From assembly GCF_003334305.1 (NCBI RefSeq), contig NZ_QOWS01000002.1: DNA of 64,000 bases. One strand, given 5' to 3'. Source of the DNA: Escherichia coli (GTDB lineage Bacteria; Pseudomonadota; Gammaproteobacteria; Enterobacterales; Enterobacteriaceae). Shown here one piece after another: positions 52 to 64,000 of the stretch (positions are counted from its first letter, which is position 1; each line of letters opens with the position of its first letter). Below the pieces are notes generated by a model. That model searched no databases and was not told the origin of the DNA. It saw only the letters and a list, made by a program, of their open reading frames with translations. The position numbers were made by a program, and so were the translations under genes.

Positions 52-984
52 TTACAGAGTTTCCTCAAAGAACGGAGCTAATACTGAAATTGCTTCAGCC
101 ACATAGGCTTTGCCGTCATAAAGATCCATATGGTTTGCGCCTTCAACAATGTGATAGCGTTTATCCTGGCTTGATGCCCGATCGTACAGGTCGTCACTCA
201 TCCATTTGCTCCCTGCCTGGCTGCCCGCCACAATCTGCATCGGCTGAGTCAGGTACACTTCCGCCATATGGTAAGCATCATAGGTAATAATCTGGTTAAG
301 GCTGCGCAAAGTAGCGTAACCCGGTGCTGTTGGATACTGCGCGCGAGGGGTGTGGTAATACTCCCAGGCCTGACGCAGTTCTTCGTTCGGCGCATCGGAC
401 TCCTTCATTGGTGCCAGTGGCATAACGGCATATTCTCCGCTGCTAATATCGCTGGTTCGGGCGTTTGAACCCGCTTCAACGTATGGCAGGGCATCAATAG
501 ATTTCACATTGTTTTCCCAACCATTACGGAACATCGAACCAATATTGACCGCACTAACGGTACCGATGGCCTTGATGCGGCGATCCTGAATTGCAGCATT
601 GGCTGTATATCCTGCACCGGCACAAATTCCCATCGCACCAATTCGGGTATTGTCGACATAAGAAAGCGTTGTCAGGTAATCAATCACGGCACTGATGTCT
701 TCAGTACGAATGTATGGGTTTTCTAACTGACGCGGCTCGCCGCCACTTTCACCTTGATAAGATGCGTCATAAGCAATAGTGACAAATCCCTTTTCCGCCA
801 GTTTTTTGGCATAGGTTCCGGCCGTTTGTTCTTTAACGCCCCCACCTGGGTGAGATACCACAATTGCCTGATACTGACGGGTTTCATCAAATTTTGGAGG
901 GAAATAGATCACTGCAGACAAAGAGATGGTTGGATTATTGCTGTTAGTGAAGCTGACTTTATTATTCATCATTCCGTTCCTCAT
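52..984 (-). CDS. ycjY: alpha/beta hydrolase (dienelactone-hydrolase-like) YcjY
   Basis: 310-aa ORF from track; recognised as YcjY; synteny next to ycjZ/mppA. Confidence 0.75.
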   Translation of the reverse strand: MRNGMMNNKVSFTNSNNPTISLSAVIYFPPKFDETRQYQAIVVSHPGGGVKEQTAGTYAKKLAEKGFVTIAYDASYQGESGGEPRQLENPYIRTEDISAVIDYLTTLSYVDNTRIGAMGICAGAGYTANAAIQDRRIKAIGTVSAVNIGSMFRNGWENNVKSIDALPYVEAGSNARTSDISSGEYAVMPLAPMKESDAPNEELRQAWEYYHTPRAQYPTAPGYATLRSLNQIITYDAYHMAEVYLTQPMQIVAGSQAGSKWMSDDLYDRASSQDKRYHIVEGANHMDLYDGKAYVAEAISVLAPFFEETL

Positions 985-1109
985 GGAGTTGTCGGTTCGT
1001 TTTAACGGTTGGTGATATCACTATAGATATTGATCATTAAGTTGATTAGACCCAAAATCATGATTAGACCTATCATTTAAATGATTAATAGATTGCATGG
1101 AGATACTGA

Positions 1110-2009
1110 ATGAAGCGTGAAGAAATCGCTGATCTGATGGCGTTTGTCGTCGTTGCAGAGGAGCGTAGCTTCACTCGTGCAGCAGCCCGCCTGAGCATGG
1201 CGCAGTCAGCTTTAAGCCAGATAGTGCGTCGTATAGAAGAACGATTGGGATTGCGGCTTCTGACGCGAACCACGCGCAGCGTTGTTCCAACTGAAGCGGG
1301 CGAGCATCTTTTGTCTGTTCTTGGCCCTATGTTGCATGACATAGATTCAGCCCTGGCATCCCTGAGCGAGCTGCAGAACCGCCCATCCGGGACAATACGT
1401 ATTACTACTGTAGAACATGCAGCAAAAACGATATTGTTACCAGCAATGCGCACATTCCTGAAATCGCATCCTGAAATTGATATTCAGCTCACCATTGATT
1501 ATGGTTTGACCGATGTCGTTTCTGAACGTTTTGATGCAGGCGTCCGTCTGGGTGGGGAGATGGATAAAGATATGATCGCCATTCGAATCGGGCCAGATAT
1601 ACCAATGGCTATTGTTGGCTCACCGGATTATTTTTCTCGCCGAAGTGTTCCAACGTCAGTGTCACAATTAATAGATCATCAGGCAATTAATTTGTATCTT
1701 CCCACATCGGGTACAGCAAATCGCTGGAGATTAATACGCGGTGGACGTGAAGTTCGTGTTCGCATGGAAGGTCAGCTTTTACTGAATACGATAGACCTGA
1801 TCATTGATGCTGCAATTGATGGGCATGGATTGGCGTATCTACCTTATGATCAGGTTGAGCGGGCTATTAAAGAAAAAAAACTGATACGTGTTTTGGATAA
1901 ATTCACACCAGATTTACCCGGTTATCACCTGTACTATCCACACCGTCGACATGCTGGCTCGGCATTCTCATTATTTATAGATAGGCTGAAGTATAAAGGT
2001 GCTGTTTAG
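1110..2009 (+). CDS. ycjZ: LysR-family transcriptional regulator
   Basis: 299-aa ORF with N-terminal HTH and LysR substrate-binding domain; divergent from ycjY. Confidence 0.8.
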   Translation: MKREEIADLMAFVVVAEERSFTRAAARLSMAQSALSQIVRRIEERLGLRLLTRTTRSVVPTEAGEHLLSVLGPMLHDIDSALASLSELQNRPSGTIRITTVEHAAKTILLPAMRTFLKSHPEIDIQLTIDYGLTDVVSERFDAGVRLGGEMDKDMIAIRIGPDIPMAIVGSPDYFSRRSVPTSVSQLIDHQAINLYLPTSGTANRWRLIRGGREVRVRMEGQLLLNTIDLIIDAAIDGHGLAYLPYDQVERAIKEKKLIRVLDKFTPDLPGYHLYYPHRRHAGSAFSLFIDRLKYKGAV

Positions 2010-2345
2010 CACTACTTGCTGATACATTAATTTAATTTCTCTCTTAACGTATTCTCAGTTCCTTTCAACGTTTTGGTTATTTTTTATTCTTCGTACAATG
2101 GCGACAGATGCTGATTATGATACCGAAAACTGGTTTGAACGTGCGAAGCCTGAACGTAGTGTTCGGTGTTCTATGTGCTTTACCGCATTTTGGCGTCGAT
2201 TATTTACACTAAATCTGATTTAATATATTGATACATAAAACATTTTATGCTTCCTGTGTCACTTTTTTGATGGAAGTTGTTTGCATTTCTTTAAGGCGAA
2301 ACAAATAATTACGCATCAATTTTAATGTCGGTTAGAGGGAAACTT

Positions 2346-3959
2346 ATGAAGCACTCTGTTTCAGTCACGTGTTGTGCGCTGTTGGTCAGCAGCATTTCTC
2401 TTTCGTATGCTGCAGAAGTTCCGAGCGGCACAGTACTGGCAGAGAAGCAGGAGCTGGTGCGCCACATTAAAGATGAGCCTGCGTCGCTGGATCCCGCTAA
2501 AGCCGTGGGCCTGCCAGAGATTCAGGTCATTCGCGATCTGTTTGAAGGACTGGTGAATCAGAACGAGAAAGGGGAGATTGTCCCCGGCGTTGCGACTCAG
2601 TGGAAAAGTAATGACAACCGTATCTGGACTTTTACCCTGCGCGATAACGCAAAATGGGCGGATGGCACACCGGTAACGGCGCAAGATTTTGTCTACAGCT
2701 GGCAACGTCTGGTGGACCCGAAAACTCTATCGCCATTTGCATGGTTTGCCGCGCTGGCGGGAATCAACAACGCACAGGCGATTATTGATGGTAAAGCTAC
2801 GCCTGACCAGCTTGGCGTCACCGCAGTTGATGCCCATACTTTGAAAATTCAGCTTGATAAACCGTTGCCGTGGTTTGTGAATTTAACCGCTAACTTTGCC
2901 TTCTTCCCGGTGCAAAAAGCCAACGTAGAAAGCGGTAAAGAGTGGACGAAACCCGGAAATCTGATTGGCAATGGCGCTTATGTTCTTAAAGAGCGCGTAG
3001 TCAATGAAAAACTGGTCGTGGTACCGAATACCCATTATTGGGATAACGCCAAAACGGTACTGCAAAAAGTGACCTTCCTGCCAATTAATCAGGAATCCGC
3101 AGCCACTAAGCGTTACCTCGCGGGGGATATTGATATCACCGAATCCTTCCCGAAAAATATGTATCAGAAGCTGTTGAAGGATATTCCGGGGCAGGTTTAT
3201 ACGCCGCCGCAGCTCGGGACCTATTATTATGCGTTTAACACGCAAAAAGGGCCGACGGCAGATCAGCGCGTTCGTCTGGCATTAAGTATGACGATAGATC
3301 GCCGCCTGATGACCGAAAAAGTATTAGGGACGGGCGAAAAGCCAGCGTGGCATTTTACACCAGATGTTACCGCCGGATTTACGCCGGAACCTTCGCCGTT
3401 TGAACAAATGAGTCAGGAAGAACTGAATGCGCAGGCAAAAACTTTGTTGAGCGCAGCTGGTTATGGTCCGCAAAAACCGCTGAAGCTGACGCTTTTGTAT
3501 AACACTTCAGAAAACCATCAAAAAATTGCGATTGCTGTAGCATCGATGTGGAAAAAGAACCTTGGCGTAGATGTTAAATTGCAAAATCAGGAATGGAAAA
3601 CCTATATCGATAGCCGTAACACCGGCAATTTTGATGTTATCCGCGCCTCATGGGTGGGGGATTATAATGAACCCTCCACTTTCCTGACATTATTAACGTC
3701 AACGCATTCAGGAAATATTTCACGCTTTAACAATCCGGCATATGACAAAGTTCTGGCCCAGGCATCGACGGAAAATACCGTTAAAGCGCGTAATGCCGAT
3801 TACAACGCGGCAGAAAAAATCCTCATGGAGCAAGCACCGATTGCACCAATTTATCAATATACCAATGGACGATTAATCAAACCGTGGCTGAAAGGTTATC
3901 CCATTAATAACCCTGAAGATGTGGCGTACAGTCGGACTATGTATATTGTGAAGCATTGA
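2346..3959 (+). CDS. mppA: periplasmic murein tripeptide-binding protein MppA
   Basis: Track ORF 2325-3959; start trimmed to ATG at 2346 (MKHSVSV..., signal peptide); OppA-family solute-binding protein. Confidence 0.85.
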   Translation: MKHSVSVTCCALLVSSISLSYAAEVPSGTVLAEKQELVRHIKDEPASLDPAKAVGLPEIQVIRDLFEGLVNQNEKGEIVPGVATQWKSNDNRIWTFTLRDNAKWADGTPVTAQDFVYSWQRLVDPKTLSPFAWFAALAGINNAQAIIDGKATPDQLGVTAVDAHTLKIQLDKPLPWFVNLTANFAFFPVQKANVESGKEWTKPGNLIGNGAYVLKERVVNEKLVVVPNTHYWDNAKTVLQKVTFLPINQESAATKRYLAGDIDITESFPKNMYQKLLKDIPGQVYTPPQLGTYYYAFNTQKGPTADQRVRLALSMTIDRRLMTEKVLGTGEKPAWHFTPDVTAGFTPEPSPFEQMSQEELNAQAKTLLSAAGYGPQKPLKLTLLYNTSENHQKIAIAVASMWKKNLGVDVKLQNQEWKTYIDSRNTGNFDVIRASWVGDYNEPSTFLTLLTSTHSGNISRFNNPAYDKVLAQASTENTVKARNADYNAAEKILMEQAPIAPIYQYTNGRLIKPWLKGYPINNPEDVAYSRTMYIVKH

Positions 3960-4009
3960 TGTGATGGGAACTGGCGTTACCCTTGTGGATAACGCCAGTG
4001 ATGTCTGAT

Positions 4010-5041
4010 TTAGCGACCCTGTTCCGGCGGTGTAATGTTATCCATATACAGCGTCTGGCTGGGGAAGGCAAAGTCCGCGCCGTGTGACTGTACAATATCG
4101 ATAATCTTCAAATAAACGTCTTGCTGTGCAGCAAGCCATTCAGCCCATACCGTGGTTTTGGTAAAGCAATAAACCATAATATTCAATGACGAGTCGGCAA
4201 ACTGGTTGAAATAAACCAGTAAGGTTTGTCGCTGGTCGATGGCCGGGTGATTTTTCAGCATCTCACGTACGGCTTCGACAATAACGCCCACTTTTGCCGC
4301 ATCCTCATAACGTAAACCAATGGTCGTGGTAATGCGGCGGTTGGTCATTCGTCCTGGGTTTTCTACGCTGATCGACGAAAACAGCGAGTTCGGTACGTAC
4401 AATGGACGATTATCAAAGGTCGTAATTTTGGTAATTCGCCAGCCAATTTCCGCTACTGTACCTTCGATATTTCTGTCCGGTGAACGGATCCAGTCGCCAA
4501 TACTGAAAGGACGGTCGAAATAGAGCATGATCCCGGAAAAGAAATTACTCAGAATATCTTTACCGGCCATACCGACAGCCAGACCACCAATACCACCAAA
4601 GGTCAACAAGCCAGAAAGGCTCATGCCGAAATGTTCGCCATAAAGCAGAACAAGCACCACAATAATGGTGATTTTGATAATGCGCGACATAATCCGCGCA
4701 CTGGTGATATCGCGACCTTTTTTAATCTGCTGTTTTTCAAACTGATTAATCAGCAAAAATAGCTTAATCGTCAGAATAACCGCAATCAGGGACGTACAGA
4801 TAAAATCGATAACGCCTGGGGTGATAAATTTGAGTTTATAGTTTTCTATAACATAATTAATAATGCTACCAACAGCACTGATAATTATGGTGTAGATTAA
4901 AAATTGCACCGCATGGAATAAAAAACCTTTTCTTTTACGATTTCCGCGGCGAAACCAAAAGCTCATCAGAATCAATGCTGCGCAGCTACCGAAAATAATG
5001 ACCAGATTAAGCGCATTATTTGTAAACAGTTCAGCGATCAT
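4010..5041 (-). CDS. ynaI: MscS-family mechanosensitive channel YnaI
   Basis: 343-aa ORF, N-terminal TM helices plus MscS domain. Confidence 0.85.
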
Positions 5042-39815: not shown

Positions 39816-40603
39816 TGATGGAATTCATCCTCAGTCATGTAGAAAAGGGCGTGATGACACTAACGCTCAACCGCCCGGAACGCCTGAACAGTTTTAATGA
39901 TGAGATGCACGCACAACTGGCAGAGTGCCTGAAACAGGTCGAGCGCGACGACACTATCCGTTGCCTGTTACTTACAGGTGCCGGGCGCGGATTTTGTGCT
40001 GGTCAGGATCTTAACGATCGTAACGTTGATCCCACAGGCCCCGCACCGGATTTAGGGATGTCAGTTGAACGTTTCTATAACCCACTGGTACGTCGCCTGG
40101 CAAAACTGCCAAAACCGGTGATCTGTGCAGTCAATGGCGTGGCGGCAGGGGCAGGCGCAACACTGGCACTGGGGTGCGACATCGTTATTGCTGCCCGTTC
40201 AGCAAAATTCGTCATGGCGTTTAGTAAGTTAGGCTTAATACCCGATTGCGGTGGAACCTGGTTACTGCCACGCGTTGCTGGGCGAGCGCGCGCCATGGGG
40301 CTGGCACTGCTGGGGAATCAACTGAGTGCTGAACAGGCGCACGAATGGGGGATGATCTGGCAGGTTGTTGATGATGAAACGCTGGCAGATACCGCGCAAC
40401 AGCTGGCACGGCATCTGGCGACACAACCGACATTTGGTCTTGGACTTATCAAGCAAGCGATAAATAGCGCTGAAACCAATACGCTCGATACGCAACTGGA
40501 TCTGGAACGTGACTATCAGCGACTTGCCGGACGGAGCGCAGATTATCGTGAAGGTGTCAGTGCGTTCCTGGCTAAACGCTCACCGCAGTTCACGGGGAAA
40601 TAG
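39815..40603 (+). CDS. paaG: 1,2-epoxyphenylacetyl-CoA isomerase (crotonase family)
   Basis: 262-aa ORF, start overlaps paaF stop. Confidence 0.9.
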   Translation: MMEFILSHVEKGVMTLTLNRPERLNSFNDEMHAQLAECLKQVERDDTIRCLLLTGAGRGFCAGQDLNDRNVDPTGPAPDLGMSVERFYNPLVRRLAKLPKPVICAVNGVAAGAGATLALGCDIVIAARSAKFVMAFSKLGLIPDCGGTWLLPRVAGRARAMGLALLGNQLSAEQAHEWGMIWQVVDDETLADTAQQLARHLATQPTFGLGLIKQAINSAETNTLDTQLDLERDYQRLAGRSADYREGVSAFLAKRSPQFTGK

Positions 40604-59853: not shown

Positions 59854-60654
59854 ATGAACATTACCCCGTTTCCGACGCTTTCGCCGGCAACTATAGATGC
59901 CATAAATGTTATCGGACAGTGGCTGGCGCAGGATGATTTCTCCGGTGAGGTGCCGTATCAGGCCGATTGCGTGATCCTTGCAGGCAATGCGGTTATGCCG
60001 ACTATCGACGCGGCATGTAAGATTGCTCGCGATCAGCAAATTCCTTTACTGATTAGTGGTGGTATCGGTCACTCGACAACTTTTTTGTATAGCGCCATCG
60101 CACAGCATCCGCACTACAACACTATCCGCACCACTGGCAGAGCAGAAGCGACCATCCTGGCGGATATCGCTCATCAGTTCTGGCACATTCCGCATGAAAA
60201 AATCTGGATTGAAGACCAGTCAACAAACTGCGGTGAAAACGCACGCTTTAGCATCGCGCTATTGAATCAGGCCGTAGAACGAGTTCATACGGCTATCGTT
60301 GTTCAGGACCCCACCATGCAGCGGCGCACGATGGCGACGTTCCGCCGTATGACTGGGGACAATCCCGATGCACCACGCTGGTTAAGTTATCCCGGATTCG
60401 TTCCTCAGTTAGGAAATAACGCAGACAGTGTAATCTTTATTAATCAGTTACAAGGATTATGGCCAGTTGAGCGTTATCTCTCACTACTCACTGGCGAGCT
60501 GCCGCGTTTACGCGATGATAGCGATGGCTACGGTCCCCGCGGGCGAGATTTTATCGTTCACGTTGATTTTCCGGCAGAAGTCATCCATGCATGGCAAACG
60601 CTGAAACATGATGCGGTGCTCATCGAGGCGATGGAAAGTCGCTCGTTACGTTAA
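59854..60654 (+). CDS. ydcF: DUF218-domain protein YdcF
   Basis: 266-aa ORF. Confidence 0.85.
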
Positions 60655-60850: not shown

Positions 60851-62290
60851 ATGTCAGTACCCGTTCAACATCCTATGTATATCGATGGACAGTTTGTTAC
60901 CTGGCGTGGAGACGCATGGATTGATGTGGTAAACCCTGCTACAGAGGCTGTCATTTCCCGCATACCCGATGGTCAGGCCGAGGATGCCCGTAAGGCAATC
61001 GATGCAGCAGAACGTGCACAACCAGAATGGGAAGCGTTGCCTGCTATTGAACGCGCCAGTTGGTTGCGCAAAATCTCCGCCGGGATCCGCGAACGCGCCA
61101 GTGAAATCAGTGCGCTGATTGTTGAAGAAGGGGGCAAGATCCAGCAGCTGGCTGAAGTCGAAGTGGCTTTTACTGCCGACTATATCGATTACATGGCGGA
61201 GTGGGCACGGCGTTACGAGGGCGAGATTATTCAAAGCGATCGTCCAGGAGAAAATATTCTTTTGTTTAAACGTGCGCTTGGTGTGACTACCGGCATTCTG
61301 CCGTGGAACTTCCCGTTCTTCCTCATTGCCCGCAAAATGGCTCCCGCTCTTTTGACCGGTAATACCATCGTCATTAAACCTAGTGAATTTACGCCAAACA
61401 ATGCGATTGCATTCGCCAAAATCGTCGATGAAATAGGCCTTCCGCGCGGCGTGTTTAACCTTGTACTGGGGCGTGGTGAAACCGTTGGGCAAGAACTGGC
61501 GGGTAACCCAAAGGTCGCAATGGTCAGTATGACAGGCAGCGTCTCTGCAGGTGAGAAGATCATGGCGACTGCGGCGAAAAACATCACCAAAGTGTGTCTG
61601 GAATTGGGGGGTAAAGCACCAGCTATCGTAATGGACGATGCCGATCTTGAACTGGCAGTCAAAGCCATCGTTGATTCACGCGTCATTAATAGTGGGCAAG
61701 TGTGTAACTGTGCAGAACGTGTTTATGTACAGAAAGGCATTTATGATCAGTTCGTCAATCGGCTGGGTGAAGCGATGCAGGCGGTTCAATTTGGTAACCC
61801 CGCTGAACGCAACGACATTGCGATGGGGCCGTTGATTAACGCCGCGGCGCTGGAAAGGGTTGAGCAAAAAGTGGCGCGCGCAGTAGAAGAAGGGGCGAGA
61901 GTGGCGTTGGGTGGCAAAGCGGTAGAGGGGAAAGGATATTATTATCCGCCGACATTGCTGCTGGATGTTCGCCAGGAAATGTCGATTATGCATGAGGAAA
62001 CCTTTGGCCCGGTTCTGCCGGTGGTCGCATTTGACACGCTGGAAGATGCTATCTCAATGGCTAATGACAGTGATTACGGCCTGACCTCATCAATCTATAC
62101 CCAAAATCTGAACGTCGCGATGAAAGCCATTAAAGGGCTGAAGTTTGGTGAAACTTACATCAACCGTGAAAACTTCGAAGCTATGCAAGGCTTCCACGCC
62201 GGATGGCGTAAATCCGGTATTGGCGGCGCAGATGGTAAACATGGCCTGCATGAATATCTGCAGACCCAGGTGGTTTATTTACAGTCGTAA
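60851..62290 (+). CDS. aldA: lactaldehyde/glycolaldehyde dehydrogenase
   Basis: 479-aa aldehyde dehydrogenase ORF. Confidence 0.95.
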   Translation: MSVPVQHPMYIDGQFVTWRGDAWIDVVNPATEAVISRIPDGQAEDARKAIDAAERAQPEWEALPAIERASWLRKISAGIRERASEISALIVEEGGKIQQLAEVEVAFTADYIDYMAEWARRYEGEIIQSDRPGENILLFKRALGVTTGILPWNFPFFLIARKMAPALLTGNTIVIKPSEFTPNNAIAFAKIVDEIGLPRGVFNLVLGRGETVGQELAGNPKVAMVSMTGSVSAGEKIMATAAKNITKVCLELGGKAPAIVMDDADLELAVKAIVDSRVINSGQVCNCAERVYVQKGIYDQFVNRLGEAMQAVQFGNPAERNDIAMGPLINAAALERVEQKVARAVEEGARVALGGKAVEGKGYYYPPTLLLDVRQEMSIMHEETFGPVLPVVAFDTLEDAISMANDSDYGLTSSIYTQNLNVAMKAIKGLKFGETYINRENFEAMQGFHAGWRKSGIGGADGKHGLHEYLQTQVVYLQS

Positions 62291-62300
62291 TGAGTAAAAG

Positions 62301-62324
62301 AGGCGGAGGTTTTTTCCTCCGCCT
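62301..62324. terminator. bidirectional Rho-independent terminator between convergent aldA and gapC
   Basis: AGGCGGAGG-TTTTTT-CCTCCGCCT. Confidence 0.75.
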
Positions 62325-62331
62325 GTGCGCG

Positions 62332-63333
62332 TCAGAGTTTAGCGAATTTTTCGAGGGTGCGAATAAGCTGCGTGACGAAGCCATATTCGTTATCGTACCA
62401 GGCGACCGTTTTCACCAGTTGTAAATCGCCCACGGCGGTAATTTCCGTTTGCGTGGCATCAAACACCGAACCGAAATGGCTGCCAATGATATCGGAAGAG
62501 ACTATTTCTTCATCGGTATAACCAAATGACTCGTTATTGGTGGTTGCTTGTTTAAGTGCGTTATTCACCTCTTCGGCAGTCACTTTTTTTCCGAGAATGG
62601 ACACCAGCTCAGTGACCGAACCTGTTTTCACCGGCACGCGTTGCGCATGACCTTTCAGTTTGCCGCTCAGTTCCGGGATCACCAGACCAATGGCTTTTGC
62701 CGCCCCCGTAGTGTGGGGAATGATATTTTCTGCCGCTGCGCGTGAAGCACGTAAATCTTTACCACGTGGGCCATCCACCAGTGACTGGGTGCCAGTATAG
62801 GCATGAATGGTCGTCATCGTGCCGACTTCTATCCCGAAACTGTCATGCAAGGCTTTGGCCATCGGCGCAAGACAGTTAGTGGTGCATGACGCCACGGAAA
62901 CAATGGTGTCGTTGCCATCCAGAGTGTCGTCATTGACGTTATAAACGATAGTTTTCATTTCACCGGCAGGGGCGGAAATCAACACCTTCTTCGCACCAGC
63001 ATCAAGATGCGCCTGCGATTTCTCGGCGGAGGTATAAAAGCCAGTACATTCGACAATGATTTCTGCACCTTTCGCTTTCCACGGAATATTTTTAGCCTCT
63101 TTTTCGGCGTAAACCGCGATACTTTTCCCATCAACGATAAGTGAATCTTCCGTAAAATCAACGCTCCAGGGGAATGGTCCGTAGTTTGAATCATGTTTCA
63201 GCAGGTAGGCGAGAATTTTTGGGGAAGTGAGATCATTAATAGCGACAACGTCTATGTTGCTTTTGACTTCAAGTAATCGACGCAACACCAGTCGACCGAT
63301 ACGACCAAAACCGTTAATACCAACTTTACTCAT
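62332..63333 (-). CDS. gapC: glyceraldehyde-3-phosphate dehydrogenase (GapC-type), intact
   Basis: Uninterrupted 333-aa ORF with NAD-binding GFGRIGR and catalytic SCTTNC motifs. Confidence 0.85.
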
Positions 63334-63521
63334 GGTTTTCTCCTGTCAGGAACATTCGGATGAAAATTGATCCTTTCCAGGCTTAGACCAGGATTGTGGG
63401 ATGGGCAATCTCCATTCTTACAGTGAAACGTAACGTACTGAAAACGGGTGAACAATATTTAATGAAATTTTGAGAAAAGCCCGTTATGTTAACGGAAAAT
63501 TATGTTAAAGCAGGAAATGTT

Positions 63522-64000
63522 ATGGAAAATAAATACTCAAGGTTACAAATCAGCATTCACTGGCTGGTCTTTTTGCTGGTTATCGCAGCGTATTGCGCAA
63601 TGGAGTTTCGTGGTTTCTTCCCACGTAGCGATCGGCCACTCATCAACATGGTTCATGTTTCCTGTGGTATCTCAATTCTCGTGCTGATGGTGGTTCGTCT
63701 TTTGTTAAGACTGAAATACCCAACCCCGCCGATTATACCTAAGCCAAAACCGATGATGACGGGACTGGCGCATTTGGGACATTTGGTGATTTATCTCCTG
63801 TTTATTGCGCTGCCAGTGATTGGTTTGGTGATGATGTATAACCGGGGCAACCCGTGGTTTGCGTTTGGTTTGACGATGCCTTACGCTTCAGAGGCCAATT
63901 TCGAACGGGTTGATAGCTTAAAGTCGTGGCATGAGACGCTGGCGAATCTGGGATATTTTGTCATCGGGTTGCACGCTGCGGCTGCACTGGCACACCACTA
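63522..64000 (+). CDS. cybB: cytochrome b561 (5' partial, runs off the window)
   Basis: ATG at 63522 (MENKYSRLQISIHWLVFLL...); hydrophobic helices with conserved His; no stop before the window end, so absent from the ORF track. Confidence 0.8.
   Translation, partial: MENKYSRLQISIHWLVFLLVIAAYCAMEFRGFFPRSDRPLINMVHVSCGISILVLMVVRLLLRLKYPTPPIIPKPKPMMTGLAHLGHLVIYLLFIALPVIGLVMMYNRGNPWFAFGLTMPYASEANFERVDSLKSWHETLANLGYFVIGLHAAAALAHH

Follow-up and report, generated by a model that had tools for sequence, protein, structure and literature searches.

An intact gapC gene for a second type I glyceraldehyde-3-phosphate dehydrogenase between aldA and cybB in Escherichia coli

The DNA analysed here is a stretch of 64,000 nt from Escherichia coli (hereafter the window), towards the end of which four genes follow each other: ydcF (59854..60654), aldA (60851..62290, plus strand), gapC (62332..63333, minus strand) and cybB (63522..64000, plus strand), the last of which encodes cytochrome b561/superoxide oxidase and is truncated at the end of the window. 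This gene order is the same in K-12, and the order aldA-gapC-cybB is also found in strain E2863. While aldA, an intact ORF of 479 aa, is convergent with gapC, cybB is divergent from it. In K-12, the sRNA gene rydC is found immediately past cybB, hence outside the window. gapC itself consists of 333 codons followed by TGA, and its product is the type I NAD-dependent glyceraldehyde-3-phosphate dehydrogenase (GAPDH) known as GapC or EcGAPDH1 (WP_000048667.1).

The gapC reading frame opens with ATG (63333..63331) and runs unbroken to its TGA, in agreement with the initial annotation, which had described an uninterrupted minus-strand ORF of 333 aa, and realignment with other copies of the gene revealed no frameshift in the window copy. 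A Shine-Dalgarno sequence, AGGAG (63340..63344, minus strand), can be read directly in the sequence 6 nt 5' of the start codon. Four codons 5' of the ATG there is a stop in the gapC frame, so that no longer form of the protein is possible. An N-terminally extended product, of the kind that database clusters of 383 aa might bring to mind, is rejected on account of this stop; the 383-aa GapC proteins in databases are C-terminal frameshift read-throughs, and such variants occur in metagenomic data. The frame read by these late-frameshift variants corresponds to a 67-aa minus-strand ORF (62181..62384) that overlaps the 3' end of gapC and the terminator described below, and that shows no sign of being a separate gene.

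Downstream of gapC, a consensus scan identified an intrinsic-terminator hairpin (62301..62324, minus strand; AGGCGGAGG-aaaaaa-CCTCCGCCT then CTTTT), which begins 8 nt past the gapC stop and has a stem of 9 bp, including seven G-C pairs, followed by a T-tract. This hairpin occupies the 41-nt gap that separates the convergent aldA and gapC genes and is flanked by A-rich and T-rich sequence, a geometry suggesting that it is probably a bidirectional terminator common to both genes. Upstream, the promoter scan of the divergent gapC-cybB intergenic region returned a sole sigma-70-like match (63499..63528, minus strand; TTTCCA-18-CATAAT), which is weak (9/12) and no better than expected from shuffled sequence, and no promoter is claimed. 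This intergenic region is normal in the window, in contrast to E. coli B, where it carries an IS1: in the derivative B-DidR, an IS1A (2144..2461 of the locus segment) begins ~170 nt ahead of the gapC start codon and could alter the activity of the gapC and cybB promoters in B/BL21 strains.

The assignment of GapC to the GAPDH family is straightforward. Against the NCBIfam model for type I GAPDH (TIGR01534, GAPDH-I), the protein scores 447.3 bits for a curated cut-off of 367.2, and the alignment is end to end, residues 3-325 of GapC matching positions 1-330 of the 330 in the profile, which shows that gapC is not a chance ORF. The two motifs whose retention had been pointed out from the sequence are indeed in place, i.e. 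the Rossmann-fold NAD-binding glycine motif GFGRIGR (63292..63312, minus strand) at residues 8-14 and the active-site motif SCTTNC (62872..62889, minus strand), with the catalytic Cys150, at residues 149-154. The acidic residue for NAD preference is Asp34, found within AINDL, and the catalytic histidine is His177, found within TTIHAYT, which gives GapC the arrangement typical of type I GAPDH, where the catalytic histidine lies ~27 residues downstream of the cysteine in SCTTNC.

How GapC relates to the other members of the family is also clear. GapA (b1779), the housekeeping glycolytic enzyme, has the fold, the catalytic cysteine and histidine, SCTTNC and the NAD-binding motif in common with GapC, and both are type I phosphorylating enzymes, but the two proteins are only 46% identical and GapC reaches 300.6 bits with the GapA-type model (NF011954/PRK15425), for which the cut-off is 662. 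GapC is therefore a separate type I GAPDH isozyme and no duplicate of GapA. gapA is absent from the 64,000-nt window and is located elsewhere on the chromosome; its presence in addition to gapC is a general feature of E. coli genomes. The modest identity to GapA, together with sub-threshold matches to models for erythrose-4-phosphate dehydrogenase and for the ArsJ-associated GAPDH, could be taken to mean that GapC is a paralogue within the family whose main substrate or role is a different one, either Epd/GapB-like or coupled to ArsJ in arsenate detoxification. These scores are, however, far under the curated cut-offs (276.6 versus 530.55 for TIGR01532 and 280.2 versus 539 for NF010058, the two Epd models, and 306.8 versus 450 for NF033735, the ArsJ-associated model), and no arsJ gene was found adjacent to gapC, the flanking genes being aldA and cybB.

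What also argues against another substrate is that the very same protein has already been purified and crystallised. Window GapC is identical at 333 of 333 positions to EcGAPDH1, the structures of which are available (PDB 7C5F, 7C5H, 7C5P and 7C7K), the only difference being an extra 19-residue N-terminal tag in the crystal construct; beyond these entries, the closest solved structures belong to other bacteria (E-values 1e-144 to 1e-119). Purified EcGAPDH1 is an active NAD-dependent GAPDH with an apparent KM of 0.73 mM for D-glyceraldehyde-3-phosphate (G3P), in assays performed at 50 °C and pH 10 (PMC8615399). Replacing Cys150 by alanine abolishes activity, while the C150S and H177A mutants are ~10^4-fold less active (PMC8615399). 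Structures were obtained with bound NAD, G3P, phosphate and a thioacyl intermediate, and Arg11, Ile12, Asp34 and Ser120 were found to contact NAD (PMC8615399). Given that EcGAPDH1 uses G3P and NAD+ in catalysis and crystallises with G3P, NAD and phosphate, a different main substrate for GapC is highly improbable.

The initial annotation had gone no further than calling this a potentially functional second GAPDH, a wording that complete identity to an assayed and crystallised enzyme allows to be strengthened. As shown by this identity at the sequence level, window gapC is expected to encode a working phosphorylating NAD-dependent GAPDH that would act via Cys150 and His177. In the reaction as established for the identical protein, NAD+ is held by the N-terminal Rossmann domain (GFGRIGR and Asp34), His177 serves as the base, and G3P is oxidised to 1,3-bisphosphoglycerate via a thioacyl intermediate on Cys150. 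E. coli B, HS, E2863 and WCHEC035148 share this protein accession. In engineered methylotrophic E. coli, the GapC of BL21 was swapped in for gapA (PMC11611044, PMC11471845), and this replacement indicates that GapC can carry glycolytic flux in vivo. We infer that the BL21 protein is the same as the one in the E. coli B derivative.

The contrast with K-12, for which the initial annotation described gapC as a split pseudogene, is genuine and well documented. In MG1655 (NC_000913.3), gapC (b4493) is indeed annotated as a pseudogene of 1001 nt (1489713..1490713), to which PGAP adds the remark 'frameshifted; internal stop' in an MG1655 derivative, and the locus, formerly annotated as gapC_1 (b1417) and gapC_2 (b1416), lies between aldA and cybB as in the window. 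In a global alignment of the window and K-12 copies, the comparison that had been suggested for pinpointing the K-12 lesion, 994 out of 1002 positions are identical and eight differences appear, two of which are disruptive. The first is a nonsense mutation at codon 39 (63217..63219, minus strand), where the window has AAA (Lys) and K-12 has a TAA stop, the changed base being 63219. The second is found in a run of seven A (62584..62590, minus strand), made up of the third base of Gly248 and the codons for Lys249 and Lys250. K-12 has only six, which results in a -1 frameshift that leads to GKK and then directly to TGA, after residue 250, and that accounts for the former division of the annotation into gapC_1 and gapC_2. 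Of the other six substitutions, one changes codon 18 from CGT to GGT in K-12 (R18G) and five are synonymous. The K-12 pseudogene is a derived form that belongs to one natural lineage, brought about by the codon-39 nonsense mutation and a -1 slip in the A7 run.

One of these lesions sits in a 7-nt homopolymer, where sequencing errors are classically found, which raises the concern that the intact frame in the window might be an assembly or sequencing artefact, with a miscounted homopolymer hiding a gene that is truly of the K-12 type. This is effectively refuted. The other lesion is a base substitution, for which the window has AAA, as do the 3222 complete genomes that match its 61-mer at this codon exactly; the six further substitutions make window gapC a different allele from that of K-12; and the 24 kb from position 40000 to 64000 have a 100% match in several complete genomes of wild E. 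coli that are independent of it, including those of A7 (from an orangutan), H15, A28 and NCTC9088.

The state of gapC across the species was gauged in 5426 complete E. coli genomes. The gapC region, searched with a 1301-nt query, is present in all but eight of them (5418), and at least 80% of this query is covered at 90-100% identity in 5408. Although allele counting by 60- and 61-mers is approximate, three exact counts are firm: the K-12 61-mer with TAA at codon 39 occurs in 1152 genomes, the K-12 60-mer with the A6 frameshift in 1046, and the window 61-mer with AAA at codon 39 in the 3222 mentioned above. The difference between the two K-12 counts may stem from strains that have the stop alone or from SNPs close by. 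The window-type 61-mer across the A7 run was recovered in 1257 genomes, which undercounts intact alleles, since other alleles lack a 28-nt seed owing to three linked synonymous SNPs. Of 40 hits sampled at even spacing, seven showed the 1300-nt span and 98.8% identity typical of K-12. Lesions of the K-12 type are thus present in about 18-21% of the 5,426 complete genomes.

These lesions are by no means restricted to the laboratory. Both are present, with the remark 'frameshifted; internal stop', in a river-water isolate from Japan and in an isolate from pig faeces in Canada, and the carriers of the double lesion also include bovine and human isolates. It has been written, with regard to gapC, that 'laboratory strains accumulate mutations' (PMC2949598), a wording that is too narrow since wild isolates carry the K-12 lesions and the allele is a natural one.

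Rare lesions of independent origin are also found. In OkiPb01697, from bovine faeces, gapC is a pseudogene (344..1343 of its locus segment) owing to the loss of 2 nt (gene positions 131-132), which is unrelated to the K-12 lesions. In SCPM-O-B-7615, from raw milk, an IS1-associated deletion has taken most of gapC together with the 3' end of aldA, leaving an IS1A between the 3'-truncated aldA and a gapC remnant of the first 199 nt (locus segment 1029..3206). LF82 has a GapC of only 314 aa ('glyceraldehyde-3-phosphate dehydrogenase c'), which lacks 19 residues, in frame, directly before the catalytic SCTTNC, a deletion that probably inactivates the protein. gapC is intact in all ten other lineages sampled, namely O157:H7, Nissle 1917, APEC O1, W224N, 1579, Lstone01, EC42405, HS and E. 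coli B, all by PGAP, and WCHEC035148. PGAP also annotates an intact 'gap' at the identical locus of strain E2863. Across gapC this strain is 100% identical to the window, whereas the annotation gives it a frameshifted aldA (1303 nt; 2789..4091 of the locus segment). Most E. coli carry the intact gene, a point on which the initial annotation, arguing from the K-12 pseudogene, had underrated how ordinary such an allele is.

Inactivation on this scale (the K-12-type double lesion in roughly 1046-1152 of the 5426 genomes, and the independent lesions in OkiPb01697, SCPM-O-B-7615, LF82 and the C-terminal frameshift variants) shows that some natural lineages can clearly do without gapC. It also gives some weight, as does the weak sigma-70-like promoter match, to the idea that the gene is silent or decaying here despite its intact ORF, in other words that it is cryptic and adds nothing physiologically to GapA. 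The pattern of variation tells otherwise. Ten intact alleles show 74 segregating sites and only nine variable amino-acid positions, and pairwise dN/dS values are 0.02-0.08, for dS values of up to 0.2. Such values, across deep E. coli lineages, are not expected of a neutral gene and indicate that gapC is maintained by strong purifying selection. Furthermore, intact orthologues of 332-333 aa, with 87-97% identity, are found in other species and genera (E. albertii, Citrobacter, Trabulsiella, Klebsiella oxytoca/grimontii, Phytobacter and Scandinavium). As for the origin of the gene, horizontal acquisition has been asserted (PMC1796617). There is no sign of a recent transfer, considering that the orthologues are spread across Enterobacteriaceae and that the composition of gapC (GC 48.2%, GC3 49.1%) is close to the window average (49.8%) and to that of its neighbours, which differ little.

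Evidence of expression from other strains bears on the same question. In EPEC, a gapC transcript has been detected, which is lower in a csrA mutant (PMC6333774). In K-12, a sigma-S RNA polymerase ChIP peak was found in the gapC-cybB intergenic region (PMC4447067), and gapC_1 was among the genes that respond in carbon-limited chemostats (PMC4512719), so that even the promoter region of the pseudogene is bound by sigma-S RNA polymerase and responds to carbon limitation by induction. Taken with the low dN/dS and the conserved orthologues, these reports make a silent or decaying gapC in the window quite unlikely.

The gene is reportedly intact in natural isolates, a statement attributed to Espinosa-Urgel and Kolter in 1998. 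Passages in two later articles present fresh water as the preferred condition for expression of gapC and the gene as intact in environmental isolates (PMC2949598, PMC1796617). From these published expression data, it can be proposed that GapC is probably an isozyme that assists GapA and that would come into play in stationary phase, under nutrient limitation or in cool aquatic conditions. As the gene has been lost in some lineages, its share in vivo beside GapA may be small or bound to particular conditions.

Overall, we consider it about 95% probable that window gapC is a wild-type, functional chromosomal allele that provides a second NAD-dependent type I GAPDH, encoded between aldA and cybB. 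An intact and functional gapC is real, ordinary and already known, through a crystal structure, enzyme kinetics and routine PGAP annotation. What is mildly new here is only the population estimate, with the K-12 double lesion as a natural allele carried by roughly one in five complete genomes and scattered independent inactivations. The finding nevertheless has a practical side: with two working GAPDH isozymes in this strain, metabolic models and knockout designs derived from K-12, in which gapA is the only GAPDH gene, would be wrong, and the same error would hold for most wild E. coli. Beyond correct annotation, this is of little import. The coexistence of a natural K-12 allele in ~20% of genomes with purifying selection elsewhere frames the question of when GapC is needed. 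One tentative reading, to which we would give somewhat less than an even chance, is that gapC has been lost in nature repeatedly and lineage by lineage, rather than through laboratory domestication, while other lineages keep it under strong purifying selection. If this is true, and if the losses track ecology, with host-restricted lineages on one side and environmentally cycling ones on the other, the polymorphism would amount to a natural experiment pointing to the role of GapC.
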